Assembly (NCBI GenBank): GCA_965224655.1
Contig: OZ245060.1
Coordinates: forward strand, 258,917-322,916
Length of the DNA: 64,000 bases
From: Woeseiaceae bacterium
GTDB lineage: Bacteria; Pseudomonadota; Gammaproteobacteria; Steroidobacterales; Woeseiaceae
Direction: 5' to 3'
This document shows positions 15,042 to 61,582 of the stretch, piece by piece. A program made the translations under genes and the position numbers. Position 1 is the first letter of the stretch, and each line of letters begins with the position of its first letter. The notes beneath the pieces were generated by a model. That model worked only from the letters and a program-made list of their open reading frames with translations. It was not told where the DNA came from and did not search any database.

Positions 15042-15819
15042 CAGCACACTCGACGGTATCGGCGTCCTCGTGACCCGCCCTGCCGCGCAGTCGGCCGGTC
15101 TCATCGCGGCGATCGAAGCCAGTGGTGGACGGGCTATCGCGTTTCCGGCTATCGAGATCGTGCCGCTGGGCGCTGCTGCGGTCTGCGACGCCGCGGCCCG
15201 ATTGCCCACACCCGACATTACTGTTTTCGTCAGCCCGAATGCCGTCGAGTACGGTGCTGAATTCGCGGGCGACGCAACGATTGCGGCCGTTGGGCCCGCC
15301 ACGGCGCAGGCGCTGGCCGCGTCGGGCAAGCCGGCCGACATCGTGCCGACCGTCGGCTACGACAGCGAGAGCCTGCTCGAAGAGCAGGCGCTGCAGAATG
15401 TCGTCGGCAAGAATATTGTGATTATTCGTGGCACCGACGGCCGACAACTCCTGGGCGACACGCTTCGCGAGCGCGGCGCGCTAGTGCACTATCTCGCCGT
15501 CTACGAACGGATTCCGGCGACGCACGACGCGGCGGCGACCGCCGCAGTGGAAGCGGACTGGCGTGCCGGCAATATCGACGTCGTTACCGTGATGAGCGTG
15601 GCGACCCTCGACAACCTCGTCGAATTGCTGCCGGAAAGTTGCGTCGAAAGGCTGGCCGGGACGCCACTGGTGACGCCGGCAGCTCGTGTGATAAAAGAAG
15701 TGCTGAAACGATATCCGGCCTCGCATCCCGTACTGGCGTCCGGGACCGGGGCTGATTCAATAGTCGATGCGATCGCCGTGGCAGCAGATGTGGCCCGGGA
15801 CACTGGACGAAAATCATGA
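15034..15819 (+). CDS. hemD: uroporphyrinogen-III synthase
   Basis: The start was trimmed to the TTG at 15034, overlapping the hemC stop by 8 nt. The 'LDGIGVLVTRPAAQSAGL' N-terminus and the position between hemC and hemX support the call. The track start 14929 lies inside hemC. Confidence 0.8.
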   Translation: MADSTLDGIGVLVTRPAAQSAGLIAAIEASGGRAIAFPAIEIVPLGAAAVCDAAARLPTPDITVFVSPNAVEYGAEFAGDATIAAVGPATAQALAASGKPADIVPTVGYDSESLLEEQALQNVVGKNIVIIRGTDGRQLLGDTLRERGALVHYLAVYERIPATHDAAATAAVEADWRAGNIDVVTVMSVATLDNLVELLPESCVERLAGTPLVTPAARVIKEVLKRYPASHPVLASGTGADSIVDAIAVAADVARDTGRKS

Positions 15820-16949
15820 GCGACACCGAAAACGAACAGGACGCGGAGTTCCCGGTCGAGGAATCCGGGTCCCCCACGATCGAGGTCGAGAAGGAGAAGC
15901 CGGCACGCAGGAAGGGCGGCGGCGTTGCCTGGCTCGCATTCCTGCTTTCCGTCATCGCCGTATCGGCCGTCGGCTACCGATGGTTCAACGACTGGCGCGC
16001 GCCGGAAGACACGAGCCAGCTTGACACGCTGGCCGACGTCAATGCGCTTCGCGACGAGCTGCGCACGACGAACGAGTCGATCAGTACACTCGGAACGCGC
16101 ATCGACGCCATACCGAGCACCGATTACAGCGGTGACATCGCTGCCGTCGAGCAACAGGTCACTGAGCGGCTGCTGCTGCTCAATACGCTGCCGTCGCGCA
16201 TGTCGACGCTTGAGAACTCGGTCGCCTCGCTGGCCGGCATTTCGCAGGGCGCCCGTGAGACGTTCCTGTTGGCCGAGGCCGAGTACTACATGCAGATTGC
16301 CAATGCGCAGTTGCAGCTTGCCAACAATCCCCATCTCGCAACGCTTGCGCTGCAAATGGCTGACGAGCGCGTCACACAACTGGCCGACCCGGCGCTTACC
16401 GACGTACGGCGGACGCTGTCCGACGAGCTCGCCGCACTCGAGGTCCTGGAAAAACCCGATCTCGAAGGGGCGACACTGACACTCGCAAGCCTCGCCCGGG
16501 TCGTCGAGTCGCTACCGCTTGCGAGCCAGCGCCAGGAATCCGGCAACGACAATGATGCTGACGATGAAGAGCAAGGCAGCGTCGACCGCGCCTGGTCATC
16601 GGTCAAGGACGCGATGTCGGGCCTCGTCAAGGTCACGCCGCCGGAGCAGGCCAGGCTTGCGATCCTGTCGCCGGACGCCGAGTACTTCCTGCGCAACAAC
16701 GTTGCGCTGCAACTGCAGGCCGCTCGCCTCGCCCTGCTGCGCGGCGAACAGTCGATCTTCCAGCAGTCACTCGACGACGCGAGTACGCTTCTGAACACGT
16801 TTTTCGATACGGACAGCGATGCCGTTGCCGGTACGCTGGAAACGCTTGGCGAAATTCGTGCCAGTGTATTCACAACGCAAAATCCCGACATCTCGGGCTC
16901 CCTGCGCCTTTTGCGCCAGTACCGGACGCTGAGCGAGACGGTCGAGTGA
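15816..16949 (+). CDS. hemX: HemX-like membrane protein (uroporphyrinogen-III C-methyltransferase-annotated family)
   Basis: 377 aa. It has an acidic N-terminus, one TM helix and a long coiled-coil periplasmic domain. Its conserved position is between hemD and hemY. Confidence 0.75.
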   Translation: MSDTENEQDAEFPVEESGSPTIEVEKEKPARRKGGGVAWLAFLLSVIAVSAVGYRWFNDWRAPEDTSQLDTLADVNALRDELRTTNESISTLGTRIDAIPSTDYSGDIAAVEQQVTERLLLLNTLPSRMSTLENSVASLAGISQGARETFLLAEAEYYMQIANAQLQLANNPHLATLALQMADERVTQLADPALTDVRRTLSDELAALEVLEKPDLEGATLTLASLARVVESLPLASQRQESGNDNDADDEEQGSVDRAWSSVKDAMSGLVKVTPPEQARLAILSPDAEYFLRNNVALQLQAARLALLRGEQSIFQQSLDDASTLLNTFFDTDSDAVAGTLETLGEIRASVFTTQNPDISGSLRLLRQYRTLSETVE

Positions 16950-48082: not shown

Positions 48083-48760
48083 TTATCCCGCGGTCAGCGG
48101 AACCATCGTGATTTCGACACGACGGTTTGCCTGGCGGCCAGCGGCCGTTCCGTTGTCCGCTACCGGACGTGATTCGCCCATACCGAGCGTGATCAGGCGC
48201 TCGTTGATAACGCCCTGACCCTTCAGGTAGTTCGATACCGACGCGGCGCGACGCTCTGACAGGCCCTGGTTATACGAATCGCTGCCCGTGCTGTCCGTGT
48301 GACCGGCAACCTCGACGACCGTCTGCTCGTATTCCTCGAGCACCTTGCCGACCGAGTTGAGTACATCGAAGAACGCCGGGCTCAGGTCCGAGCTGTCCGT
48401 GGCAAACGTCACGTTGCCCGGCATGTTCAGCGTAATGTTGTCGCCATTGCGAACGACGCTGACGCCCGTACCTTCGAGCTCCGCACGAAGCTCGGCTTCC
48501 TGCTTGTCCATGTAGTAACCGACGCTGCCACCGGCAAGCGCGCCAATGCCCGCACCGATCAGCGCATGCTGGCGCCGCTCGACGGCATCGTCACCCGAGA
48601 TCAGCCCCACGACCGCACCGGCCGCCGCACCAATCAGGGCGCCCTTCGTCGCCGAGCTGGTCTTCTCTTCGCGCGTATACGCGTCGAGCGTCTTGCAGCC
48701 GCTCACAAAAACGGCCAAAAAAGTCATAATCAAAACAGTTTTCGAAGATCGTATATTCAT
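48083..48760 (-). CDS. OmpA-family peptidoglycan-binding lipoprotein with glycine-zipper
   Basis: The start was trimmed to the ATG at 48760. It has the lipobox 'VFVSGC' and the glycine zipper 'GALIGAAAGAVVGLISG'. The C-terminal OmpA_C domain reads 'VAGHTDSTGSDSYNQGLSERRAASV'. Confidence 0.85.
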   Translation of the reverse strand: MNIRSSKTVLIMTFLAVFVSGCKTLDAYTREEKTSSATKGALIGAAAGAVVGLISGDDAVERRQHALIGAGIGALAGGSVGYYMDKQEAELRAELEGTGVSVVRNGDNITLNMPGNVTFATDSSDLSPAFFDVLNSVGKVLEEYEQTVVEVAGHTDSTGSDSYNQGLSERRAASVSNYLKGQGVINERLITLGMGESRPVADNGTAAGRQANRRVEITMVPLTAG

Positions 48761-48899
48761 GATCCTTCCCCTGGCTTGCAGTAAGTACGGGTGCATTGTA
48801 GGCACTTGCTAGCTGAACGCATGCTTAATTGACGCGTTTATGTACAACTAGGTCACACGGAAGTTCCATACTGTGGACTACGTCACGTAAACTGCGCGG

Positions 48900-49410: not shown

Positions 49411-50577
49411 GTGAGCACCAAACTCGATCCATTGGACCTCTACGACATTCGCTCGGAGCTATCCGAAGACGAGGTCATGGTCAAAGACAACGTCGCCCGT
49501 TTCGTCGACGCCGAAGTCATCCCGCTGATGCGCGAGGCTTTCGAGAACCATGAATTCCCGCAGCACCTTATCAAAGCGGTGGCCGACCTTGGATTACTGG
49601 GCAGCTCCATCGAGGGCTACGACTGTGCGGGCCTCAACGGCGTGAGCTATGGACTCATTTGCCAGGAACTCGAGCGCGGCGATTCCGGCCTGCGCTCGTT
49701 TGTGTCGGTGCAGTCGAGCCTCGTCATGTTCCCGATCTGGGCCTACGGCTCGGAGGATCAAAAGCAGCGGTGGCTGCCGGCGATGGCGCGCGGCGAGGCA
49801 ATTGGCTGCTTCGGCCTCACCGAGCCGCACGGCGGCTCCGACCCCGGCAACATGAAAACGCACGCGAAGCGTGATGGCGACGACTGGATCCTCAACGGCT
49901 CGAAGATGTGGATAACGAATGCGACGATCGCCGACGCCGCCGTCGTCTGGGCGAAGACCGAAGAAGGCGTGAAAGGCTTCATCGTCGAGAAAGACATGGC
50001 CGGGTTCGACACCCAGGAAATCGAGAACAAATTTTCGTTGCGGGCATCGGTCACCGGCGCGCTGTTCTTCGACAACGTGCGCATTCCGGAAGCCAATGTG
50101 CTACCGGGCGTGTCGAGCCTCAAGGGCCCGCTCTCCTGTCTTACGCAGGCACGCTACGGAATTACCTGGGGCGTCATCGGCGCCGCGCAGGCCTGCCTGC
50201 AGGAGGTACTGAACTACACGCAGGACCGCGTCCTGTTCGGGCGACCACTCGCGCATACACAGGCTGTGCAGATCCGCATGGCGGAGATGAGCCGCAAAAT
50301 CACGACCGCCCAACTTCTGAGCCTGCGTCTCGGCCGTATCAAGGACGCGGGCAATCTCAACCCGTCGCAGGTATCGATGGCCAAATGGAACAACTGCCGC
50401 GCAGCGCTCGACATCGCACGGGATGCGCGCGACATCCTCGGCGGCGCCGGTATCAGCGCAGAGTACGTTCCGGTGCGCCACATGCTGAATCTTGAAAGCG
50501 TGATCACTTACGAGGGCACCGAGACCGTTCACCAGCTCGTCATCGGCAAGGAGCTGACCGGAGTCAACGCATTCTGA
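49411..50577 (+). CDS. gcdH: glutaryl-CoA dehydrogenase (acyl-CoA dehydrogenase family)
   Basis: 388 aa with a GTG start. It has '[18 protein letters not shown]' and '[13 protein letters not shown]'. The N-terminus '[16 protein letters not shown]' is typical of GcdH. Confidence 0.8.
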
Positions 50578-50587
50578 GGAGCCGCGT

Positions 50588-51907
50588 TTGACCGCGACGC
50601 CGCTTCCCACCGACCGCGAGGTGTGGCGCATAGCCGCACCGATGATCCTGTCCAACATTTCCGTGCCGTTACTCGGCATGGTGGACACCGGCGTCGTCGG
50701 TCACCTCGAGAGCCCCGCCTATCTCGGCGCCGTCGCCATCGGCGCAACGATATTCACGTTCATCTACATGGGCATGAATTTCCTGCGCATGGGCACGACG
50801 GGCATAGCGGCGCAGGCCTTTGGCGCCGACGACAACGACGGTCTCCGTGCGTCGCTCGGACAAGCGCTCATTGTCAGCGTCCATATTGCGTTGGCTCTGA
50901 TGCTGCTGCAGCTGCCGATTCGCAACCTCGCACTGTTCCTGCTCGGTGGCGAGCCAGAGACCCGGGCATTTGCGGCGGAATACTTCTCGATCCGCATTTG
51001 GAGTGCGCCCGGGACGTTGGCCAACTACGCATTGATCGGTTGGTTCATCGGCTTGCAAAACGCCCGCGTGCCGCTCGCGATCTTCCTGACAATCAACCTG
51101 ACGAACATCGCGCTCGACCTGCTGTTTGTCCTCGTGCTCGGTATGAAAGTCGATGGCGTAGCGCTGGCCTCAGTCATTGCCGAATACACCGGTCTCGCCG
51201 TTGGCGTTGTCTTCGCAGTTCAGGCGCTGCGGCAACGCGAGGGAAGCTGGCCGGTCGAGCGCCTTGTCAAGGTTCCGGCTTACAAGGCTTTTTTCAGCGT
51301 CAATGGCAACCTGTTTGTTCGCACGCTCGCGCTGATGTCGACGTTAGGCTTCATTACGGCCTGGGGCGCACGGCTCGGTCCGCTGATTCTCGCGGCGAAC
51401 GCCGTACTCATGAACTTCCAGATGCTGACCTCGCTGGGCCTCGACGGTATCGCACACGCGGCCGAGGCGATGGTCGGCCGCGCGATCGGCGCGAAACGCC
51501 GCAACGCGCTGGAAATGGCCGTCCGCCTGACACTGAAATGGTCGGTGATCTTTGCGATTGGCTTTACGCTGATCTACATCGTCGCGGGCCAGTGGATCGT
51601 TGCGCTGCTGACAGACCTCGAGGACGTTCGCGCTACGGCGAACCGTTACCTGCCCTGGTTGATCATCTCGCCAATCGTCTCGGTATGGTGTTTCCTTTAT
51701 GACGGTGTGTACGTCGGCGCAACTCGTGCTCGCGAAATGCGCAATATCATGGTGTTCTCGGCGCTCTGCGTATTTCTCCCCGCATGGTACCTGTCACTAC
51801 CATTAGGCAATGATGGTTTGTGGCTGGCGTTCCTGCTATTCCTTGCCAGTCGCGGCATCGGCATGCACATTGGCTACCGCCGCAAACTACTACCCACGTA
51901 TGGCTGA
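50588..51907 (+). CDS. MATE-family efflux transporter (DinF-like)
   Basis: 439 aa with 12 TM helices. The N-terminus 'REVWRIAAPMILSNISVPLLGMVDTGVVGHL' is typical of MATE/DinF. Confidence 0.85.
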   Translation: MTATPLPTDREVWRIAAPMILSNISVPLLGMVDTGVVGHLESPAYLGAVAIGATIFTFIYMGMNFLRMGTTGIAAQAFGADDNDGLRASLGQALIVSVHIALALMLLQLPIRNLALFLLGGEPETRAFAAEYFSIRIWSAPGTLANYALIGWFIGLQNARVPLAIFLTINLTNIALDLLFVLVLGMKVDGVALASVIAEYTGLAVGVVFAVQALRQREGSWPVERLVKVPAYKAFFSVNGNLFVRTLALMSTLGFITAWGARLGPLILAANAVLMNFQMLTSLGLDGIAHAAEAMVGRAIGAKRRNALEMAVRLTLKWSVIFAIGFTLIYIVAGQWIVALLTDLEDVRATANRYLPWLIISPIVSVWCFLYDGVYVGATRAREMRNIMVFSALCVFLPAWYLSLPLGNDGLWLAFLLFLASRGIGMHIGYRRKLLPTYG

Positions 51908-51925: not shown

Positions 51926-53293
51926 TCAGACCGCTTTGACGGGGACGGCCGGCTCGAGAATATTGCGTGCCGTGCGGCGTGCCCACAGAAAACCGAGCAA
52001 GCCCGTTAACAAATTCGCCAGCGCATACGCGCCGAAGATTCCCGCAATACCGAACCACTCTTTCGCGACGAGCGCAATCGGCACGTAAATCACCATCATG
52101 CGGGTCACGCTGATGTAGACGGCCGGCATCGGTTTGCCAAGGCCATTGAACGCTGCGTTCATCACCATGACGACGCCGTAGGCACCGTAGCTGATCGGCG
52201 CAATCCACAGGAACAACCGGGTAACTTTGATGACGTCCGGGTTATCGCTGAACATGGTCGGCAGGAACCCCGACGCGAGCGCAAGAAGTACCGCGATGAC
52301 GAGCCCTGCACCCATGCAGAATGCCGACGTCAGTCGCAGCGACAACTGGATCCTGTCGTCTTTTCCCGCCGACAGGTTTTGTCCGACAAACGGACCGATT
52401 GTCGATGACATCGCGTAAAAAACGACGAGCACAAGCGACTCGATGCGGCTGGCGACGCCAAACCCGGCAACGGCTTCCGGCCCGAATCGCGCGACCATGC
52501 CGGTAACGATGGTCATTGCAACCGGGATGATGGCGTTGGTACCCGCCGCCGGAAGGCCGACATGGAGAATGTCGGCCCAGGAACGCTTCAGTTTGTCAGC
52601 GTCCGGCAAAGCCAGGCTCACCATGCCGTAGCGCGTCGTCAGCAGATAGACGGCGCCTACGAAAATCGTGCCCCTTGCCAGCAACGCCGCCACTGCTGCA
52701 CCGTTCAGCCCCAACGCGGGAACCGGCCCGAGGCCGAAGATCAGTATCGGATCGAACAGCACATTCAGGATCGCGCCGCCGATCATCAGCTTGCTGGGCA
52801 GCGTGGTGTCGCCTGTCGCGCGCATGCTGGCCATGCCGACCATCGCGACAACGATGAACGGCACCCCCGCATAAAGGATCAGCATGAAACTGCGGATCAT
52901 GGGAATCATTTCCTCGGGCGCACCGAGCAACCGGAATAGCGGGTTGATCGTCGCGACGCCGATTACTGCGACGACTGCAGTGATCAGGAATGACAGCAAC
53001 AGGCTGTCGGTCGTCAGCCTTTGTGCGCGCTCATGGTCGTCCGCGCCGATGGCGCGCGCAACGACCGACGACGTGCCCGCACCCAGACCGATCGCGATGC
53101 TCGTCACGATCATCAGTATCGGGAAGCCGAAACTGAATGCCGCCAGCGCATCGTCGCCGACCTTGCCCAGGAACCAGGTGTCGACAAATGACTGACCCAT
53201 CATCGTCGTGATACCGAGCAACACGGGCACGGTCATGTTGACGAGGTGACGGCCGACAGGCCCCTCGGTCAGTCTGGCTTTGGGAGAGTTCAT
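51926..53293 (-). CDS. MATE-family efflux transporter (NorM-like)
   Basis: 455 aa with 12 TM helices. The N-terminus 'GPVGRHLVNMTVPVLLGITTMMGQSFVDTWFLGKVGDDALAA' is typical of the MATE family. Confidence 0.85.
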   Translation of the reverse strand: MNSPKARLTEGPVGRHLVNMTVPVLLGITTMMGQSFVDTWFLGKVGDDALAAFSFGFPILMIVTSIAIGLGAGTSSVVARAIGADDHERAQRLTTDSLLLSFLITAVVAVIGVATINPLFRLLGAPEEMIPMIRSFMLILYAGVPFIVVAMVGMASMRATGDTTLPSKLMIGGAILNVLFDPILIFGLGPVPALGLNGAAVAALLARGTIFVGAVYLLTTRYGMVSLALPDADKLKRSWADILHVGLPAAGTNAIIPVAMTIVTGMVARFGPEAVAGFGVASRIESLVLVVFYAMSSTIGPFVGQNLSAGKDDRIQLSLRLTSAFCMGAGLVIAVLLALASGFLPTMFSDNPDVIKVTRLFLWIAPISYGAYGVVMVMNAAFNGLGKPMPAVYISVTRMMVIYVPIALVAKEWFGIAGIFGAYALANLLTGLLGFLWARRTARNILEPAVPVKAV

Positions 53294-53347
53294 CCGAGCT
53301 CTTCGGGCTGTTCCAGAAGAGACGAATACAGGGTATCCGTGTGAAAC

Positions 53348-53938
53348 TCAAGATTGTTCTTCAGCCGCATCGACGCGGCGCGCCGTAACGACATAGCGCA
53401 TCGGTCCGCCCGGTTCGACCGCATCGAACGGATAACAGGTTACGAGACTCAGCAACGCGATGTCGGCTTCGAGCGCGATCGACCCTTTGCGCGAGTCGAC
53501 GATATCGATGTCGACGACTTCGAAGTCGTAGCTTACGCCCTCGTTGGTTTCGATAACCAGGCGCTCTCCGGGCTGGACCTGCTCGAGAAACCGGAAGTGG
53601 GTATCGCGATGTCCGGCGATCACCGAATTGCCGCGCTCACCCGGCGGCGGACTGGCGCCGAGGTGACCGGGACCGAAGGCCAGCGTGCGACCGGAGCCGC
53701 CGGCGAGCACGATGAGATCGACCTCGCCGTCACGCGCCTTCAGCCGCGCCACCGGCCAGGTGTCCGCCCACGGCCACGGCGCGGCGCGCTCCACACCGTG
53801 ATTGCTGCGCTCCCATGCCCGTTGCATGAGCTCCTGTGCAAACCACGCCTTGGCGGGGATGTACGCGCCTTGTCCGAGCTGCCAGAACCCCAGCCCGATG
53901 ACCGCTGCCACGACCAGTTTCCTAGCGCGACCGAGCAT
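53348..53938 (-). CDS. sortase, Gram-negative ('marine proteobacterial') type
   Basis: 196 aa. It has an N-terminal TM anchor, the catalytic His context 'VIAGHRDTHF' and the Cys motif 'LSLVTCYPF' (TLxTC-like). The conserved Arg lies in 'RYVVTARR'. The start overlaps the target gene stop by 17 nt. Confidence 0.85.
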   Translation of the reverse strand: MLGRARKLVVAAVIGLGFWQLGQGAYIPAKAWFAQELMQRAWERSNHGVERAAPWPWADTWPVARLKARDGEVDLIVLAGGSGRTLAFGPGHLGASPPPGERGNSVIAGHRDTHFRFLEQVQPGERLVIETNEGVSYDFEVVDIDIVDSRKGSIALEADIALLSLVTCYPFDAVEPGGPMRYVVTARRVDAAEEQS

Positions 53939-55997
53939 GCCGGGCGCCGCCGCTGCTCTTGTGAAACATCAGCACGAGACCGAACAGAAGGGTCAGGAAT
54001 CCGCTCACGCGCAACAACGGGGCGTTCGTCGCCGTCGCCGGGAACCCCAGGATCGCATTCATGCTTTGTCCATACGGCAGCAGATTGGGGACCTGCTCGC
54101 TGGTCAGCCCGTCGCCGGCCGGTCGAACCGGGGTCTTGTCGACGGCGACGAGGCTCGTGTACTTGCTGACGAGGTGGTGTTCTATCGCGGTATCGACAAT
54201 TTCCTGTCGGGTTGCTGCCTTTTCTTCTTCAGTGCCTGGCGCACGTCGTTCGATATCCATGAGCTGGTCTATTCGTGCGCGTGCCCACAATGCGCCGACT
54301 CCGGGACTGTCGGCGGCGTTTTCAACGTCCATCTCGGCCGTAAATGCGCCCGCGACCGTATTGCCTGCAACCGTTACCGAATCGGAAGATCGCAGCTCGC
54401 CGGAAAGCGCCGCTTTTACAACAATCGGCTCGCCCAGGTAGAGGTCCGGCACCGCGGCAGGGTAGCTCTCGACGAGCACGCCGCTCGGCCAGTGCACTTC
54501 GACGTCTGTAACCTGCGGTTGCTGCAGCTTGCGGAACAGCTCATCCATTCTGTCCTGCACTTCGTGAAGCGCCGAGATAAACGTGTAGGTTCCCTTGCCG
54601 GCCTCCGCGGCCTTGCGCATGAACCAGCTGTTTGGCGCCGACCCGATGCCGACGGTGAACAGGCGTGCCGCGCCGAGTTTGTTTTCGATCATCGAGAACA
54701 ACTCGTCCTCGTAGCCAACGCTGCCGTCGGTAATGAACACAACCTGGCGCAGGTGATTCTCCGAAGGCGGCGAGTTCAGCGCGATGTTCAGGGCCGGGCG
54801 CATCTCGGTGCCGCCTTCGGCCTGCAGTCCGTCAACGAACTTCGCGGCGAATTTCAGGTTCTCGGCCGTCGCCGGTTCGCTCTTCGAGTAAAGCGGTCGC
54901 GTCGCCGAGTCGAACTCGATCACATTGAAACGGTCGCCGGGATTCAGCCCGCGCAATGCAAGTTGCAGTGCTCTTTTGGCCTGGGCAATGGATACGCCGT
55001 GCATCGACCCGGACGTATCGATGATGAATATCATCTCGCGCGGCAATACGGCGTCGGGTATCAGCTCTTCATCCGGTGGCACAACCATTAACAGCATGTG
55101 CGGTTTGCCGGCGACGTCCTCACGGAAGACCATGGCGCGAGGTTTTGCCGACGGCACAGGGCGCCACATCAGCTCGAAGTCGTGATCCATCGCGACCTTT
55201 TCGAGGCTGAGTGAGACCGTGTAGTGATTCTGCTCCCGGGCAATATCCACCGGGTGATACTGGCTCGCGATGAGGTCGAGCGGCATACCAACGTTGATCT
55301 TCACATCCATCGTGATCCGATGCGCATTCGATGACGTCACCTGCGGCGGCGTGATCTGCGATGCATCCGGCACCTCGTCCGTGTCCGGCGACCAGCCGCT
55401 GCCGGTGCGATCCGGCATCGGCGTACCCGGAATGTAGCGCGGCGTCAGCGTCATCGGGAATCGGATACTGAACTGGCCATCCTCGTAGCGAATGTCTTCC
55501 AGGTACTCGACCTCGACGACAACCCGTTCGCCGGGCGCGATGTTTGCCACCGAGGTGGTAAACAGGTTTGCCCGTTGCTGCTCAACCAGGCTTGTCTTTT
55601 TTCCTTCACTCTTGGCTTTTTCATAGGTCTTCTTCGCTTGTTCCTTTTCCTGGATTTCGCCCTCGATGAAGCGATCGCCGATGTGCAATCGCATCCGGTC
55701 GACGGCTGCCTTGTCCGGAAGCGGGAACACGTAAACACCCTCAACCCACTCGCTGCCCGTATTACGGAACTCCTGGCGTACCGAGACGCGCGCGACGAGG
55801 CCGCTGATACTCATTTCCACATCGGTGTTCAGCAGGGTCGCGACCGCGTAGCCGCTCTGCATTCGCAGCAAAAGGCTGCCCGACTGCATGTCGGACGGGC
55901 GGACGTCGTCGTTGCCCTCGGCAGGCGCGTAATACAGAACGGCAGCCAGGACGGCCACCCAGAACCACGATCGGAGGTCGGATTGTGTGCGATGCAT
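53922..55997 (-). CDS. sortase target protein with VIT and von Willebrand factor A domains
   Basis: 691 aa. It has a signal peptide and a VIT domain ('VRQEFRNTGSEWVEGVYVFPLP'). The vWA domain carries the MIDAS motif 'IFIIDTSGSMHG'. The C-terminal sorting signal is 'FPATAT' + hydrophobic 'LRVSGFLTLLFGLVLMF' + basic tail 'HKSSGGARHARSR'. Confidence 0.85.
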   Translation of the reverse strand: MHRTQSDLRSWFWVAVLAAVLYYAPAEGNDDVRPSDMQSGSLLLRMQSGYAVATLLNTDVEMSISGLVARVSVRQEFRNTGSEWVEGVYVFPLPDKAAVDRMRLHIGDRFIEGEIQEKEQAKKTYEKAKSEGKKTSLVEQQRANLFTTSVANIAPGERVVVEVEYLEDIRYEDGQFSIRFPMTLTPRYIPGTPMPDRTGSGWSPDTDEVPDASQITPPQVTSSNAHRITMDVKINVGMPLDLIASQYHPVDIAREQNHYTVSLSLEKVAMDHDFELMWRPVPSAKPRAMVFREDVAGKPHMLLMVVPPDEELIPDAVLPREMIFIIDTSGSMHGVSIAQAKRALQLALRGLNPGDRFNVIEFDSATRPLYSKSEPATAENLKFAAKFVDGLQAEGGTEMRPALNIALNSPPSENHLRQVVFITDGSVGYEDELFSMIENKLGAARLFTVGIGSAPNSWFMRKAAEAGKGTYTFISALHEVQDRMDELFRKLQQPQVTDVEVHWPSGVLVESYPAAVPDLYLGEPIVVKAALSGELRSSDSVTVAGNTVAGAFTAEMDVENAADSPGVGALWARARIDQLMDIERRAPGTEEEKAATRQEIVDTAIEHHLVSKYTSLVAVDKTPVRPAGDGLTSEQVPNLLPYGQSMNAILGFPATATNAPLLRVSGFLTLLFGLVLMFHKSSGGARHARSR

Positions 55998-56118
55998 TGC
56001 TTGCTCCCTTTGGCGTGGTGTCCATTAAGCGCCGCCAAAAAGTCAGGCTGTGGACCTCGGCATGGCAATGCACCGGCGTAATGTGGCAAATTGTGGCGCT
56101 CAATTGATGGAGGCCGCT

Positions 56119-56811
56119 GTGGCAAAACGCATAGCTATCGTTGAAGACGAAGCCGCGATCCGGGACAACTACGTCGAAGCGTTTCGACGCGAGGGCTACG
56201 CTGTGGACGCGTACGACGCCCGTCAGCCGGCGCTCAACGCGTTCGATACGCGCCTGCCCGACCTCGTCGTTATCGACATCAACCTGCGCGACGATGTCGA
56301 AGGCGGCTTCGAACTGTGCCGCGAGTTGCGCGCGCGCTCGACGGACTTGCCGATCATTTTTCTCACCGCGCGCGACAGCGAGTTCGATGCCGTTTCCGGG
56401 CTGCGGCTCGGTGCCGACGATTACCTGACCAAGGACATCAGCCTGCCGCACCTGATGGCGAGAGTCGCCGCTTTGTTCCGCCGCCTCGACGCCATGCAGC
56501 AGCCGGAAGGGAAGGACAGCCGCCTGTCGCGTGGCGACCTCGAAATCGACACGGAACGCATGACGGTGCACTGGAAGGAACAACCGGTCGGACTGACGCT
56601 GACCGAGTTCTGGCTCGTGCACGCGATGGCGCGCTATCCCGGCCACGTAAAGAACCGGCAGCAGCTCATGGATGCCGCCCAGGCGGTACTCGATGACAAC
56701 ACGATCACGTCGCACATCAAGCGAATTCGCCGCAAGTTCGTCGCGATCGATGCCGACTTCGACGCGATCGAAACCGTCTACGGCATGGGCTATCGCTGGC
56801 TGGGCGACTAG
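56119..56811 (+). CDS. OmpR/PhoB-family response regulator of the dedicated sortase system
   Basis: It has the receiver domain 'RIAIVEDEAAIRDNY...DLVVIDINL' and a winged-helix C-terminus 'YGMGYRW'. The GTG at 56119 has GGAGG 5 nt upstream. ATG 56107 or track start 56050 are alternatives. Confidence 0.8.
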   Translation: MAKRIAIVEDEAAIRDNYVEAFRREGYAVDAYDARQPALNAFDTRLPDLVVIDINLRDDVEGGFELCRELRARSTDLPIIFLTARDSEFDAVSGLRLGADDYLTKDISLPHLMARVAALFRRLDAMQQPEGKDSRLSRGDLEIDTERMTVHWKEQPVGLTLTEFWLVHAMARYPGHVKNRQQLMDAAQAVLDDNTITSHIKRIRRKFVAIDADFDAIETVYGMGYRWLGD

Positions 56812-56820
56812 CGCTATCCG

Positions 56821-58833
56821 ATGAATCTCAAACGGCAGTTGTTGCTCGTCAGCCTGATGACGCTGATGCTGCCGTGGGCCGGCTGCGAGTTCATTCGCGA
56901 AACGGAGTCTGCACTGCGCCAGGTGCAGGAGGACATGCTGGCCGGCACGGCACGCGCGCTGGCGACATCATTCGGACAATACCCGGAAGAGTTCCCGGCA
57001 GCCGATATCCGAGGTACCAGCGACGATCGCATCTACCTGCATGCGCTGGGCAAGCGCCCGGAGATCGACGGCTACTTCGACGACTGGCCGCTGGAACCTG
57101 ATGCGCTGCACACAATGACGGGTTTCGACGGACCGATTCGCTACGCGTTCGGCGAAGTCGGCAACGACGTTTACGTATTTGTCGAGGTGACCGATCGCAG
57201 CGTTGTTTACGCAGCAAGCCAGGCGCCTGCCGGCCGTTCCACGTTCGCCGATCGCGTTTCGATCGTGAGCGCCAGCCCGCCGATGTCGCTCGACCGATTT
57301 GTATTCGCCACCGAGGCGCCCGGACAGACTGTTAGTTACCGTCCCGTCGGCCGTGAAATCGAAGTGGAGCCGGCAACAACCGCATACTGGCAGGAATTCG
57401 CCGGCGGCTACCGGCTCGAGGGACGCATACCGGTGTCTTTGCTCGGCAGCAATATCGGACTGGCCGTCGAGAACACGGCGACGGCGTCCGAGCGCGGGAC
57501 GCGGGCGCAAAACTTCGCAGGCACGGTTCCCGGACTCGCAGCGCGGCCACTGCCCGGGATTCGCACACTGGCAGAACCACTGGTTCCTGACGGTACGCGG
57601 GTACTGATAACCGACGCCGAGGGCTGGCGTATCGCGACATCGGGTGCACTACGGCAATCCGCGAGCGACACGGACAACGTGTGGCCAAGACACATCTATG
57701 AGCTGCTCGTCGAAAGCGGCAAGGCGGCCGCGTTCGCCGAACCGGACCCGCAAGGGCGCGAAACGCAGGCCTACGTGAACATTGCGCTGAACGGTACCGA
57801 GCAGACGGCTTGGTTCCGGGCCGAGGACAGCGGCCAGGCCATCATCGCGGCGGCGGCGCCGATCGTGAACAACGGAGACATCGTTGGCGCATTGATATTG
57901 CAACAAAGCACCGACGCGATACTGAGCCTCGCAAACTCTGGCCTTGCCCGGTTGATCAGCATTACGATCATCACGACACTCGTCGTCGCGGCCATCCTCC
58001 TCGGTTACGCCACCTGGCTGTCACGACGCATTCGTCACCTGTCCAGGGCAGCCGAGCGCGCGCTCGAAAACGAGCAATTGCAAAGCGCGCTCCCGGGCGC
58101 GGAAGCGACGGACGAGGTTGGCGATCTGTCGCGAAGTTTTTCGTACGTCCTGCGACAGCTCGATGACTACAACGCCTACCTGCGATCGCTCGCATCGAAA
58201 CTCTCCCACGAACTCCGCACACCACTGGCGATCGTCACGTCGTCGCTCGACAACCTCGAACACGAACAATTGAGTGGCGCGTCAGTCGGCTACATTGACC
58301 GCGCGAGCGAGGGCGCTAATCGCCTCCGCAAGATTCTGAATGCTATGAGCGAAGCGAGCCGCGTCGAGGAGTTGATGGAGAGCGCCGAGCCGGAACAGTT
58401 CGACCTGCACAAGGTGCTCAAGTCGACGGTCGCGGCCTACTCGGACGCGTACCCTGACAGGCGCATCGAATTCGATGCGGCGGTCAACGAGGCAACGGTG
58501 AATGGTTCGCCCGAGCTGTTGATCCAGATGCTCGACAAGCTCGTCGACAACGCGGTGAGCTTTTCCGGCGATGGCGACACAGTCTCGATACGCCTGTCTG
58601 AATCGGACGATTCGGTGATTGTCTCCGTTACCAACCCGGGTCCGCCACTGCCCGAACGCATGCGCTCCCAGATGTTCGATTCAATGGTCTCGATGCGCGG
58701 CGGCGAGGATTCCCGGCACCTCGGTCTTGGGCTATTTGTCGCACGGCTAATCGCCGAAGGACACAGCGGGCGTATTGCCGCCGACAACGTCGATGGCGGT
58801 GTGTGCTTCTCGGTTTTCCTTCCAGTTAACTGA
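56821..58833 (+). CDS. sensor histidine kinase of the dedicated sortase system
   Basis: 670 aa. It has an N-terminal TM helix, a periplasmic domain of about 360 aa, a second TM helix and a HAMP-like segment. The H-box 'LASKLSHELRTPLA' and the HATPase motifs ('NPGPPL', 'GLGLFV') are present. Confidence 0.85.
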   Translation: MNLKRQLLLVSLMTLMLPWAGCEFIRETESALRQVQEDMLAGTARALATSFGQYPEEFPAADIRGTSDDRIYLHALGKRPEIDGYFDDWPLEPDALHTMTGFDGPIRYAFGEVGNDVYVFVEVTDRSVVYAASQAPAGRSTFADRVSIVSASPPMSLDRFVFATEAPGQTVSYRPVGREIEVEPATTAYWQEFAGGYRLEGRIPVSLLGSNIGLAVENTATASERGTRAQNFAGTVPGLAARPLPGIRTLAEPLVPDGTRVLITDAEGWRIATSGALRQSASDTDNVWPRHIYELLVESGKAAAFAEPDPQGRETQAYVNIALNGTEQTAWFRAEDSGQAIIAAAAPIVNNGDIVGALILQQSTDAILSLANSGLARLISITIITTLVVAAILLGYATWLSRRIRHLSRAAERALENEQLQSALPGAEATDEVGDLSRSFSYVLRQLDDYNAYLRSLASKLSHELRTPLAIVTSSLDNLEHEQLSGASVGYIDRASEGANRLRKILNAMSEASRVEELMESAEPEQFDLHKVLKSTVAAYSDAYPDRRIEFDAAVNEATVNGSPELLIQMLDKLVDNAVSFSGDGDTVSIRLSESDDSVIVSVTNPGPPLPERMRSQMFDSMVSMRGGEDSRHLGLGLFVARLIAEGHSGRIAADNVDGGVCFSVFLPVN

Positions 58834-58911
58834 TTGTTTTTAATGGATTTATCAGTTGATCTGGCCTATAATGCTGTATATTAAAACAGTTATTATTTGA
58901 GGGGAAAAATC

Positions 58912-60201
58912 ATGTCATCAGCCGTTGCCTGCCTGCCCCATCCGGACGTCACGGATGGCGAAAAACTCGGCGCCGATATCAGCGAGCTGTCGGCCTACAT
59001 CTACGTTGCGACCTACCAGTTGCTGGTGATGATTGCGGAGTTCGATCGCAAGAAGTACTGGGAAGGACAGGGGTTTCGTAGCTGTGCGCACTGGCTGAAC
59101 CATCACTGCGGCTTCAACATGAATTCAGCGCGTGAACGGGTGCGGGTCGCCCATGCGCTGGGCCGCTTGCCGAAGATCGCGAAAAAGTTCTCCACCGGGC
59201 AACTGAGCTACTCGAAGGTACGCGCTGTGACGCGCGTGGCGGATGAGACCAACGAGGACCAGTTATTGACGTTTGCCGAGCATGGCACGGCTCACCAGGT
59301 GGAGCGGCTGGTGGCGCAGTACCGTCGGGCACAGCATCTGCAGAACGAAGACAACGCGTATCGGCAATACCTGGATCGTGAGGTGAGTTACTACTACGAC
59401 ATCGACGGGGCGGTGGTGATGAAGGTGCGCATGCCCGCGGAGCAGGGTGAGCTGGTCGTTAAGGCACTGGAGCGGATGATGGACGTGGATTTCAGGGGGG
59501 AGGGACCAGACTCCGTTGAGCAAACGGCGGTCGAAGATCCACTGCACGTGCCGTCTGCGGCGCGGCGAGCCGATGCGCTGACGCACATCTGCCAGGCCTA
59601 CCTGAATAACAACGATGAGAAGGGCTCGAAGGCGGATCGGTACCAGGTCGTGGTGCATCAGAAGGAAGGATCTGCCTGCATAGAACATGGCCCAAACGTT
59701 TCCGCGGAAACGTGCAAAAGGATCAGTTGCGATTGTTCGACGGTGACGGTCGTCGAGGATGTTGACGGCGAACCACTGTCCATAGGCCGGAAAACACGCA
59801 CGTTACCACCTGCCATCCGTCGCGCATTGGTGGCCAGAGACGGCGGATGTCGCTTTCCAGGGTGTACCGACCATCGTTTCGTGGTTGGTCACCATATTCA
59901 GCACTGGGCCGATGGCGGCGAGACGAGTCTCGACAACCTCGTACTGCTGTGCGAACACCATCACCACCTGGTGCACGAGGGTGGCTTTGATTGCCGACGA
60001 TCGGAATGTGGCGAGATCTATTTCGTGGACAGGCGGAACGAACCGATATCGACGCATGTGATCCCGCGACCGATTTCGATTGAGAACATCCTGGCCTCGA
60101 TGCGGGCTCGGTTTTCCAGATCCAATGTTCCCGCGGAAACGTTTAGGCCTGCGCAGGCCTCAGGTACCCGGGTCGACTGGTCGCTGGTCGAGTTGGCCTG
60201 A
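58912..60201 (+). CDS. DUF222-domain HNH endonuclease (actinobacterial 13E12-repeat-like)
   Basis: The ATG at 58912 has GAGGGG 7 nt upstream. The DUF222 region reads 'IAEFDRKKYWEGQGFRSCAHWLNHHCG...ARERVRVAHALGRLP'. The HNH motif reads 'HHIQHWADGGETSLDNLVLLCEHHHHLVHEGGF'. Confidence 0.8.
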   Translation: MSSAVACLPHPDVTDGEKLGADISELSAYIYVATYQLLVMIAEFDRKKYWEGQGFRSCAHWLNHHCGFNMNSARERVRVAHALGRLPKIAKKFSTGQLSYSKVRAVTRVADETNEDQLLTFAEHGTAHQVERLVAQYRRAQHLQNEDNAYRQYLDREVSYYYDIDGAVVMKVRMPAEQGELVVKALERMMDVDFRGEGPDSVEQTAVEDPLHVPSAARRADALTHICQAYLNNNDEKGSKADRYQVVVHQKEGSACIEHGPNVSAETCKRISCDCSTVTVVEDVDGEPLSIGRKTRTLPPAIRRALVARDGGCRFPGCTDHRFVVGHHIQHWADGGETSLDNLVLLCEHHHHLVHEGGFDCRRSECGEIYFVDRRNEPISTHVIPRPISIENILASMRARFSRSNVPAETFRPAQASGTRVDWSLVELA

Positions 60202-60215
60202 TAGGCTGACGGCAG

Positions 60216-60533
60216 ATGGACGATCAGAACCAATCAACGAGCTGGACGACGGTGGGGTATTTCTACCACCCGACCGAAGCACGTATTGCTGCCGGTAGAC
60301 TCGAGTCTGAAGGAATTCCCGTCTATCTTCATGGCGTCAATCACGCGACAGCCAACTGGTTGCTGACGACTGCTCTTGGCGGAATTCAACGTCAGGTTCT
60401 CAGGGCTGCTGTCGCTGGTGGCGCATTCGCCATTGCGCCTGCTGCATTGGCCTACGGAATTTTCGTGAAGGCGCTGCCTGTTGCGTACGGCTTTGCGGCC
60501 ACATTGCTCGGGTTGCTTGAGAGGCGAGGTTAG
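60216..60533 (+). CDS. DUF2007-like small protein with C-terminal hydrophobic segment(s)
   Basis: 105 aa. The sequence 'WTTVGYFYHPTEARIAAGRLESEGIPVYLHG' resembles the DUF2007 (putative signal-transducing) fold motif. The C-terminal 45 aa are Ala/Gly/Leu-rich TM-like sequence. Confidence 0.55.
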   Translation: MDDQNQSTSWTTVGYFYHPTEARIAAGRLESEGIPVYLHGVNHATANWLLTTALGGIQRQVLRAAVAGGAFAIAPAALAYGIFVKALPVAYGFAATLLGLLERRG

Positions 60534-60534
60534 A

Positions 60535-61173
60535 TTGATCGTCTGCAGGCACACAGGAACCTACGTGTTTGCAATCGCAATACTATCTGTTGCGCTGTTG
60601 CCAGTCGTCTCCACAGCGCAACCAGAGGATGCCGATATCCGTGTTCGCGAAGAGCTTGTCGCCGCCGCGATGGAAAGAACGAATTACGACGTCACTTACG
60701 ACGGCCGTTACGTGTCAATCGGGTATCCGGGCGGCGACGTGCCGCCGGATATCGGTGTGTGCACCGATGTCATTGTTCGCAGCTACCGCGCCACCGGCAT
60801 CGATCTCCAGGTACTCGTGCACGAGGATATGCAAGCGAACTTCGATGCATACCCGAAATACTGGGGCTTGTCTGCGCCCGACCCGAACATCGATCACAGG
60901 CGCGTGCCGAACCTGCAGGTCTTCTTCTCGAGACAGGGCGAATCGCTGCCCGTTTCGGACAATGCCGACGCATACCGGCCCGGCGACGTGGTTACATGGA
61001 TGCTTCCGGGCAACCTCCCTCACATCGGCATTGTCGTAGCCCAGCGGTCTTCCGGTACGAATCGTCCGCTCGTGGTCCACAATATTGGTGAGGGACCGAA
61101 ACTGGAGGACATCCTGTTCCGATACGAAATCACGGGCCACTATCGATTCTACGGCGCTCGCCAGGAGCGTTGA
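60535..61173 (+). CDS. DUF1287-family protein (papain/NlpC-P60-like fold), secreted
   Basis: The sequence 'YDVTYDGRYVSIGYPGGDVPPDIGVCTDVIVRSYR...NIDHRRVPNL...PGDVVTW...PHIGIV...VHNIG...GHYRF' matches DUF1287. A TTG start at 60535, 1 nt after the preceding stop, gives a signal-peptide-like N-terminus. GTG 60568 is an alternative. Confidence 0.75.
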   Translation: MIVCRHTGTYVFAIAILSVALLPVVSTAQPEDADIRVREELVAAAMERTNYDVTYDGRYVSIGYPGGDVPPDIGVCTDVIVRSYRATGIDLQVLVHEDMQANFDAYPKYWGLSAPDPNIDHRRVPNLQVFFSRQGESLPVSDNADAYRPGDVVTWMLPGNLPHIGIVVAQRSSGTNRPLVVHNIGEGPKLEDILFRYEITGHYRFYGARQER

Positions 61174-61174
61174 C

Positions 61175-61582
61175 TTGAGAGTCTTCTTCTACGGCCTTTT
61201 CATGGACGAATCCGTACTCGCCGCGAAGGACATTGCGTTTACTGCGATTGCCACCGGCTACGTCGAAGACTTTCAATTGCGCATCGGCGAACGCGCAACA
61301 CTCCTTCACAAACCCGGCGGCCGGGCTTGGGGGAACGTGATGGACGTTAGTTCCGGCGACGCAGCACGACTGTATTCAGAAAAGAGCGTTGCCGACTATG
61401 TACCGGAAACGGTTGTCGTCGAAACCGGTGACGGTACGCAGCTCGAAGCAACCTGCTACAACCTGCCGCGCGAGGCAGTCGCCGGCACCAACAGGAGCTA
61501 CGCGAAATCCCTTCTCGCACTGGCCATTCGTTGCGGGTTTCCGGAGTCCTACCTGGACGAAATCCGGCGGGTAGCCGAATAG
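61175..61582 (+). CDS. gamma-glutamylcyclotransferase (GGCT/AIG2-like) family protein
   Basis: A TTG start at 61175, 1 nt after the DUF1287 stop, gives 'LRVFFYGLFMDESVL', the YGxLM-type N-terminus of AIG2/GGCT proteins. It is 135 aa. Confidence 0.6.
   Translation: MRVFFYGLFMDESVLAAKDIAFTAIATGYVEDFQLRIGERATLLHKPGGRAWGNVMDVSSGDAARLYSEKSVADYVPETVVVETGDGTQLEATCYNLPREAVAGTNRSYAKSLLALAIRCGFPESYLDEIRRVAE

Follow-up and report, generated by a model that had tools for sequence, protein, structure and literature searches.

Since 2001-2004, the sortases of diderm bacteria have been a curiosity without an explanation. The dedicated sortase system is covered by five NCBIfam models: TIGR03784 for the sortase, TIGR03788 for its target, TIGR03787 for the response regulator PdsR, TIGR03785 for the histidine kinase PdsS and TIGR03789 for PdsO. 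In Shewanella oneidensis, the two-component system (TCS) PghKR (SO2192/SO2193), a new name given in 2023 to the PdsSR pair, lies next to SO2194 (pdsO), SO2195 (target) and SO2196 (sortase). It is switched on by peptidoglycan-targeting antibiotics and by the loss of PBP1a, its activation requires a CBM9-like periplasmic module, and it induces SO2194-96 more than 17-fold (bioRxiv 10.1101/2023.05.05.539549). In S. algae, the recurrent pdsS change G547W raises the sortase 126-fold, the target 388-fold and pdsO 799-fold (PMC11580497). PghKR has also been employed as a biosensor for cell-wall antibiotics, in a 2026 paper. Here we analyse a locus of this kind from a Woeseiaceae bacterium, a module of four genes at positions 53348-58833 of a 64,000-nt stretch of DNA, hereafter the window.

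The locus is a Gram-negative dedicated sortase system with a divergent OmpR-type TCS, and as such an ordinary member of a catalogued kind. It departs from the Shewanella archetype in having no PdsO, a divergent kinase and an FPATAT sorting motif. The system as a whole being already catalogued and its regulatory half studied in Shewanella, what is added here is the PdsO-less variant, a promoter box, the prediction of a CBM9-like sensor and an ITIH1-like target. A first-pass annotation of the window had listed as unknown the stimulus of the kinase, the acceptor to which the target is attached and the ligand of its vWA domain. The first entry is outdated, the stimulus in Shewanella being peptidoglycan damage; to the other two we found no answer in the literature searched.

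Gene content of the locus and of its relatives

The minus strand carries the gene of a class GN sortase (53348-53938, 196 aa) and, upstream of it, that of the sortase target (53922-55997, 691 aa). The two overlap by 17 nt (53922-53938, minus strand), from the stop codon TAG of the target (53922-53924) to the ATG of the sortase (53936-53938), which implies a single operon and makes translational coupling possible. On the plus strand, the gene of an OmpR-family response regulator of the PdsR/PghR type (56119-56811, within a maximal open reading frame (ORF) from 56050) is followed by that of a sensor histidine kinase of the PdsS/PghK type (56821-58833, 670 aa). The first-pass annotation had proposed these four genes and the overlap, and both can be read directly from the sequence.

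Family membership was judged by the curated bit-score cut-offs of NCBIfam, together with Pfam domains. The sortase reaches 209.2 bits with TIGR03784 (cut-off 158.25, E 3.3e-62, model positions 4-174 of 174), the target 775.9 bits with TIGR03788 (cut-off 551.65) and the regulator 385.8 bits with TIGR03787 (cut-off 335.7), all three above threshold. The kinase finds its top family match in TIGR03785, aligned over positions 1-703 of the 703 of the model, at 530.3 bits and hence under the cut-off of 612.2; the runner-up among NCBIfam families, CreC, obtains 159 bits. By sequence, it is a divergent member of the TIGR03785 family, and the syntenic kinases of other Woeseiaceae are its orthologues. 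In Pfam, the sortase matches Sortase PF04203 (90 bits), the target VIT and VWA_3/VWA, the regulator Response_reg and Trans_reg_C, and the kinase HAMP, HisKA and HATPase_c. The E-values of the NCBIfam hidden Markov model (HMM) matches, 3e-62 to 3e-233 for the genes, rule out chance. The family assignments of the first-pass annotation stand, with the kinase as a best match below threshold. Its description of the locus as complete, with models for exactly this quartet, needs amending: the four models exist, and the NCBIfam set has a fifth, PdsO (TIGR03789), which is missing here.

Close homologues bear the names 'class GN sortase [Woeseiaceae bacterium]' and 'marine proteobacterial sortase target protein'. 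Related loci in Woeseiaceae metagenome-assembled genomes (MAGs) are 62-71% identical, and homologues are found at up to 80% identity, some of them named Woeseiaceae. We scanned one genome per species, which gave 80 loci. The target lies immediately upstream of the sortase in each of the 77 loci with upstream DNA (77/77). The TCS adjoins this pair in 40 of the 64 assessable loci, including every assessable one of the Woeseiaceae; the four genes do co-occur in other genomes, and the core of the first-pass reading, a dedicated sortase system with a divergent OmpR-type TCS, agrees with both the HMM families and this co-occurrence. The other 24 loci (Nitrospira, alpha- and betaproteobacteria, Deinococcota and others) have no TCS within 4-8 kb, so that control by the TCS is no inherent property of the sortase pair. 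Since the pairing of target and sortase is constant while the TCS and PdsO vary, the conserved core, as judged from these sequences, is target plus sortase, and the TCS and PdsO are frequent accessories. An all-against-all BLAST of 108 flanking ORFs, run in search of partners conserved across the TCS-less loci, returned lineage-specific synteny only (an OmpA-like gene in Nitrospira).

A PdsO-like gene stands between regulator and target only in L043, L061, L069, L070 and L073, and elsewhere within L072; in five Nitrospira loci, the target is preceded by an OmpA-like gene of another kind. The window cassette has none, 121 bp only separating regulator and target, and neither has any other Woeseiaceae-type locus. 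PdsO is thus not an obligatory acceptor of the target.

A profile built from the five PdsO-like ORFs found in this gap matched a single ORF of the window, at 48083-48805 (minus strand), which we rejected as PdsO. It is the sole OmpA-like ORF of the window, belongs to the YiaD family (273 bits), scores 93 bits with the pdsO model (cut-off 152) and resembles PdsO in its OmpA domain only. This gene of a YiaD Gly-zipper/OmpA-like lipoprotein lies ~4.5 kb downstream of the sortase and is syntenic in 12 Woeseiaceae loci, along with two MATE transporters (50588-51907 and 51926-53293) and an acyl-CoA dehydrogenase (49411-50577).

Two further observations concern the spread of the system. In L072 (2015-8510), the pdsO-like gene is on the opposite strand and is followed by regulator, kinase, target and sortase on one strand. 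Pairs of GN sortase and target also occur in MAGs labelled Nitrospira, Gemmatimonadota, Deinococcota, Vicinamibacteria, Thermodesulfobacteriota and Spirochaetales (L031, L033, L034, L045, L046, L056, L057, L063, L065, L066, L071 and L077), labels to be read with the caution that MAG binning can err; given pairs in so many phyla, 'proteobacterial' is too narrow a name.

Sortase, sorting signal and target protein

The sortase consists of an N-terminal membrane anchor (aa 7-25, 53864-53920, minus strand) and a periplasmic catalytic domain (aa 72-189, 53372-53725, minus strand). Its catalytic residues are H110 (in GHRDTHF), C168 (TCYPF) and R181 (MRYVV). A search of representatives clustered at 50% identity gave 481 clusters at E<1e-30. 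In an alignment of 58 diverse GN sortases drawn from this search, every sequence has R181, and at least 90% keep H110 and C168. The closest sequence match in the PDB is the class D sortase 2LN7 (E 3.9e-12), where R181 is aligned with the arginine of the RY motif (RYIIEA). The histidine and cysteine contexts named in the first-pass annotation are therefore retained, and the invariance of R181, together with this alignment, takes the place of the arginine context TARR that it had suggested.

Class D also ranks first among the Gram-positive classes, its models giving 82-84 bits where those of classes C, E and F give 30-43. The class D sortases of Firmicutes (Bacillus anthracis SrtC, PDB 2LN7; NF058671 'LPxTATN-specific') have GHRDTxF, TCYPF and RY motifs that align with the window sortase, and their substrate motif LPxTATN is similar to the xPxTAT(N) found here. 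They join proteins to meso-diaminopimelate (mDAP) cross-bridges. The window sortase is nevertheless distinct from them: it scores 82.4 bits with NF033746 (cut-off 165) and 84.2 bits with NF058671 (cut-off 140), far under both, it has a conserved N-terminal segment specific to GN sortases, KA..AQ.L...W...PWPWADTWPVARL, and it comes from a diderm host and has one apparent dedicated substrate within the window.

Some homologues deviate from this pattern. Two GN-sortase-like representatives, P0124 and P0232, lack the catalytic histidine and have lost or displaced the cysteine (AGNGETHF/VCSYPF and TGRRDTWF/VTGYPF); one of the two is 54% identical to the window sortase. From their sequences, they may represent paralogues without activity or genes that have decayed. 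P0196 (860 aa) is an apparent in-frame fusion of target and sortase, running from the sorting signal through a transmembrane (TM) helix, a basic linker and the TM helix of the sortase to the catalytic domain; on the sequence, this layout is a topologically feasible two-helix hairpin. A second apparent fusion, P0230 (805 aa), looks like a frameshift or a gene-calling artefact of the overlapping genes.

The C-terminus of the target is tripartite. It comprises the motif FPATAT (aa 652-657, 54027-54044), an 18-residue hydrophobic TM helix (aa 661-678, 53964-54017) and the basic tail HKSSGGARHARSR (53925-53963), all on the minus strand. The C-terminal sorting signal that had been proposed for this protein is confirmed in this form, with FPATAT rather than LPXTG as its motif. 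Across 60+ orthologues, the motif is [FLYM]Px[TG]AT, again followed by a TM helix and a basic tail. FPATAT occurs in 26 loci, including every complete Woeseiaceae-type target but that of L022 (FPSTAT); LP[QRK]TAT occurs in 15, and the remainder have LPxGAT and other variants. No second C-terminus of the sorting type was found among the other ORFs of the 64-kb window.

Ahead of this signal, the target has a signal peptide (about aa 1-27, 55917-55997), a VIT domain (aa 56-165, 55503-55832) and a vWA domain (aa 321-473, 54579-55037) with the metal-ion-dependent adhesion site (MIDAS) DTSGS at aa 327-331 (55005-55019), all on the minus strand. These Pfam domains and the conserved MIDAS bear out the earlier description of a secreted VIT/vWA protein of 691 aa. 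Of the MIDAS residues, D327, S329, S331 and T397 are shared by all of 68 orthologues, and D424 by 67 of them. By sequence, the PDB matches are the VIT-vWA region of PARP4 at 2e-38 and also ITIH4/ITIH1. An AlphaFold2 (AF2) model of the target, of moderate quality (pLDDT 67), superposes on human ITIH1 (6FPY) with E 1.7e-32 and TM 0.61/0.69 over 619 columns. On this model, the whole target resembles inter-alpha-inhibitor heavy chain 1.

The layout of VIT, vWA and C-terminal domain seen in ITIH1 (6FPY) and PARP4 extends over the whole mature target, whose MIDAS is intact. The sequence identity is ~17%, and the target is bacterial and periplasmic. ITIH heavy chains are coupled covalently via their C-terminus to a glycan polymer, and the likeness suggests the hypothesis that, under stress, a glycan polymer is decorated covalently. 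The chemistry would differ: ITIH attachment is an Asp ester transfer, whereas the sortase route would proceed through a thioester and then amide formation.

Sortases hydrolyse their substrates when the nucleophile is missing. It is conceivable that the present enzyme acts mainly as a processing protease, hydrolysis of the acyl-enzyme freeing a soluble periplasmic or secreted VIT/vWA protein that is not covalently anchored, and the deletion of the S. oneidensis operon, which gave no wall-related phenotype, would fit such a role. We consider this improbable. An invariant His/Cys/Arg triad and strictly conserved residues past the scissile bond (TAT) are usual in transpeptidases that have a defined substrate, and the mere release of a protein would need no dedicated sortase kept across several phyla. 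In addition, the motif is reached by a long linker (aa 611-659), low-confidence in the AF2 model and probably disordered, like those of wall-spanning sortase substrates.

Two-component system and divergent promoter

GTG 56119 is preceded by the Shine-Dalgarno sequence GGAGG (56108-56112). Because related loci keep GGAG-N5-7-GTG, it is the most likely start of the regulator, giving a protein of 230 aa and an intergenic region of 121 bp. Numbered from this codon, the phospho-acceptor is D53.

The kinase (plus strand) starts with TM1 (aa 6-22), followed by a periplasmic sensor of about 353 aa (aa 23-375, 56887-57945), in agreement with the ~360 aa estimated in the first-pass annotation. TM2 begins at about aa 378 and leads to HAMP, to HisKA with H463 (58207-58209) and to HATPase_c. 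An AF2 model of the sensor (aa 23-375), made with 34 sequences, has a pLDDT of 84.5 and a pTM of 0.82. The top PDB matches of this model in Foldseek are the CBM9 modules 7NWO (7e-5) and 1I82 and the DOMON-like 2IVF_C, and the predicted CBM9-like beta-sandwich covers about aa 72-230 (57034-57510, plus strand). Weaker, Cache/WalK-like matches cover the membrane-proximal alpha/beta subdomain. The kinase sensor is thus predicted to keep a CBM9-like fold in an alpha/beta subdomain, in the layout of the PghK type. CreBC, the next-best characterised TCS family for the pair, scores well under its cut-offs for both the regulator (191 vs 273 bits) and the kinase (159 vs 356 bits), and CreC is without a CBM9-like sensor.

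The divergent promoter contains a conserved 37-bp block, GGCATGGCAATGCACCGGCGTAATGTGGCAAATTGTG (56059-56095, plus strand), the sole long near-invariant stretch in an alignment of 15 regulator-target intergenic regions. Within it lies the direct repeat TGGCAA-N15-TGGCAA (56063-56089), 27 bp long and with a period of 21 bp. The exact repeat has 22 copies in the 1.08 Mb of the window and the loci. Twenty of them fall in the regulator-target intergenic region, one in the window and the others in 19 loci, that is, in all Woeseiaceae-like loci (L001-L023) in which this region is intact; the chance expectation within the window is 0.16. Beta- and gammaproteobacterial loci carry versions of the box with up to 2 mismatches in the corresponding place, among them copies ahead of pdsO. 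From this conservation we infer that the block is a candidate operator of the PdsR/PghR-type regulator.

The two remaining exact copies are in coding sequence. One of these, at 16297-16323 (minus strand), is inside hemX (15816-16949) of the hemC-hemD-hemX-hemY cluster; it is without the extended consensus and was set aside as probably a chance occurrence. A scan for sigma-70 promoters over 53000-59200 yielded nothing.

The promoter also bears on whether the TCS and the sortase operon belong together. They could be neighbours by inherited synteny alone, the TCS controlling other genes (beta-lactamase and the stringent response, as in Shewanella) and the sortase pair being regulated separately. 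This would account for the 24 of 64 assessable loci whose sortase pair has no TCS beside it, and for the beta-lactam phenotype of PghKR in S. oneidensis, which is independent of the sortase genes. The divergent layout, on the other hand, is kept in every assessable Woeseiaceae locus, the 27-bp repeat box is almost confined to the shared promoter, and distant lineages have a related box ahead of pdsO-target-sortase. In two Shewanella species, moreover, the TCS induces the orthologous operons. Coincidental proximity is, in our view, very unlikely, and we retain the TCS as the probable regulator of the operon.

Proposed mechanism and comparison with known systems

We propose the following sequence of events. 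The CBM9-like module of the kinase would detect, in the periplasm, glycan fragments released from damaged murein, and H463 would hand a phosphate to D53 of the regulator, which would then bind the TGGCAA-N15-TGGCAA box and activate the target-sortase operon, and probably its own operon too. Exported by Sec, the target would be retained in the inner membrane through its C-terminal helix until the membrane-anchored sortase, using C168, H110 and R181, cuts it at FPAT|AT. The sortase would pass the Thr carboxyl to an envelope amine, for which the meso-diaminopimelate side chain in peptidoglycan or lipid II is the most plausible candidate. The outcome would be a metal-dependent adhesion domain bound covalently to the wall, in the periplasm, following wall stress. 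Activation of the window TCS by peptidoglycan damage, and induction of the operon by it, are borrowed in this scheme from the Shewanella orthologues. On balance, we favour this description of the locus: a PdsO-less dedicated sortase system of four genes that is induced by wall damage and joins its target covalently to an envelope amine, most plausibly mDAP of peptidoglycan.

The mDAP side chain is preferred because the inner-membrane-anchored enzyme faces the periplasm, because it scores closest to class D, and because PdsO is not an obligatory acceptor. A different acceptor may be considered: an outer-membrane lipoprotein, an OmpA-like protein (PdsO where present), or the amine of phosphatidylethanolamine or lipopolysaccharide, any of which would tether the vWA domain to the outer membrane or display it there. 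PdsO-type or OmpA-like genes do stand directly upstream of the target in the five loci with PdsO in the gap (L043, L061, L069, L070 and L073) and in the five Nitrospira loci. The target family has, in published observations, GlyGly-CTERM or PEP-CTERM signals in other taxa, and these are linked to surface or exopolysaccharide sorting. Yet the window and all Woeseiaceae-type loci lack PdsO, the TCS-less loci share no other conserved neighbour, and the genes nearby encode no outer-membrane export route for the product of an inner-membrane-anchored sortase. With a nearest class, by score, that is described as mDAP-using, we regard an acceptor other than peptidoglycan as unlikely.

Several points weigh against the proposed mechanism. 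The kinase is under the curated cut-off of TIGR03785 (530 vs 612 bits), and a Pfam sequence search of its sensor gave no match to CBM9 and only a sub-threshold one to Cache_WalK, so that structure prediction was needed. The operator is a candidate drawn from conservation. All regulatory evidence is carried over from Shewanella, a distant relative, in which the deletion of SO2194-96 left the ampicillin resistance of S. oneidensis unchanged (bioRxiv 10.1101/2023.05.05.539549). The window lacks PdsO, which shows the strongest induction of the members in S. algae, and in 24 of 64 assessable loci no TCS is found within 4-8 kb of the pair. In the literature searched, we found no experiment showing cleavage of the motif or the acceptor in any Gram-negative bacterium, nor a biochemical study of a Gram-negative sortase.

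A more specific version of this mechanism is also more tentative. The locus might be a minimal, PdsO-independent device for wall repair, in which damage leads to the joining of target Thr655 to meso-DAP of murein while the MIDAS binds an envelope partner, and in which the box is a previously undescribed PdsR/PghR operator. If the former holds, the system would parallel, in bacteria, the transfer of heavy chains onto hyaluronan; if the latter does, the box would be usable for regulon prediction in many phyla.

The surroundings of the locus can be described briefly. Between kinase and gltD, the window has ~2.7 kb (58897-61582), whereas in other Woeseiaceae loci gltD directly follows the kinase. 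This segment holds four ORFs: one encodes a DUF222 and HNH endonuclease protein (58897-60201), the next is small (60216-60533), and the last two encode a DUF1287 protein (60481-61173) and a GGACT/AIG2-like protein (61085-61582). Its GC content is slightly lower, 0.57-0.58 vs about 0.62, and it may be a lineage-specific insertion. The region at 13-21 kb encodes a LytTR-type response regulator, hemCDXY, a ParA-like ATPase, dapF and xerC. Scans of the window (1-64000) for tRNA genes and Rfam families gave no match.

The system is common in the Woeseiaceae, abundant bacteria of marine sediments, as a stripped-down form of four genes that does without PdsO. The locus offers three handles: a conserved FPATAT signal, a sharply defined candidate operator and a sensor with a predicted glycan-binding fold. 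As Shewanella is the better experimental system, the gain to be had from the window locus is modest.

Compared with PghKR of S. oneidensis and PdsS-PdsR of S. algae, the sensor of the window kinase is divergent in sequence and is detected weakly by the sequence models of Pfam and NCBIfam; no homologue of blaA or relV was found beside the window locus, no search aimed at one having been made. It belongs to the same NCBIfam families, occupies the same position beside the sortase operon and has the same predicted combination of a CBM9-like module and an alpha/beta subdomain in its sensor. As for the whole locus, the Shewanella dedicated sortase system (S. oneidensis SO2192-SO2196) has pdsO between regulator and target, where the window has none, and the intergenic region measures 232 bp in S. 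oneidensis vs 121 bp here. The sorting motif is FPATAT in the window vs LP[QKR]TAT in many other lineages. Common to the Shewanella and Woeseiaceae systems are the sortase, one adjacent VIT/vWA target with its sorting signal, and the divergently placed OmpR-type regulator with its large-sensor kinase.

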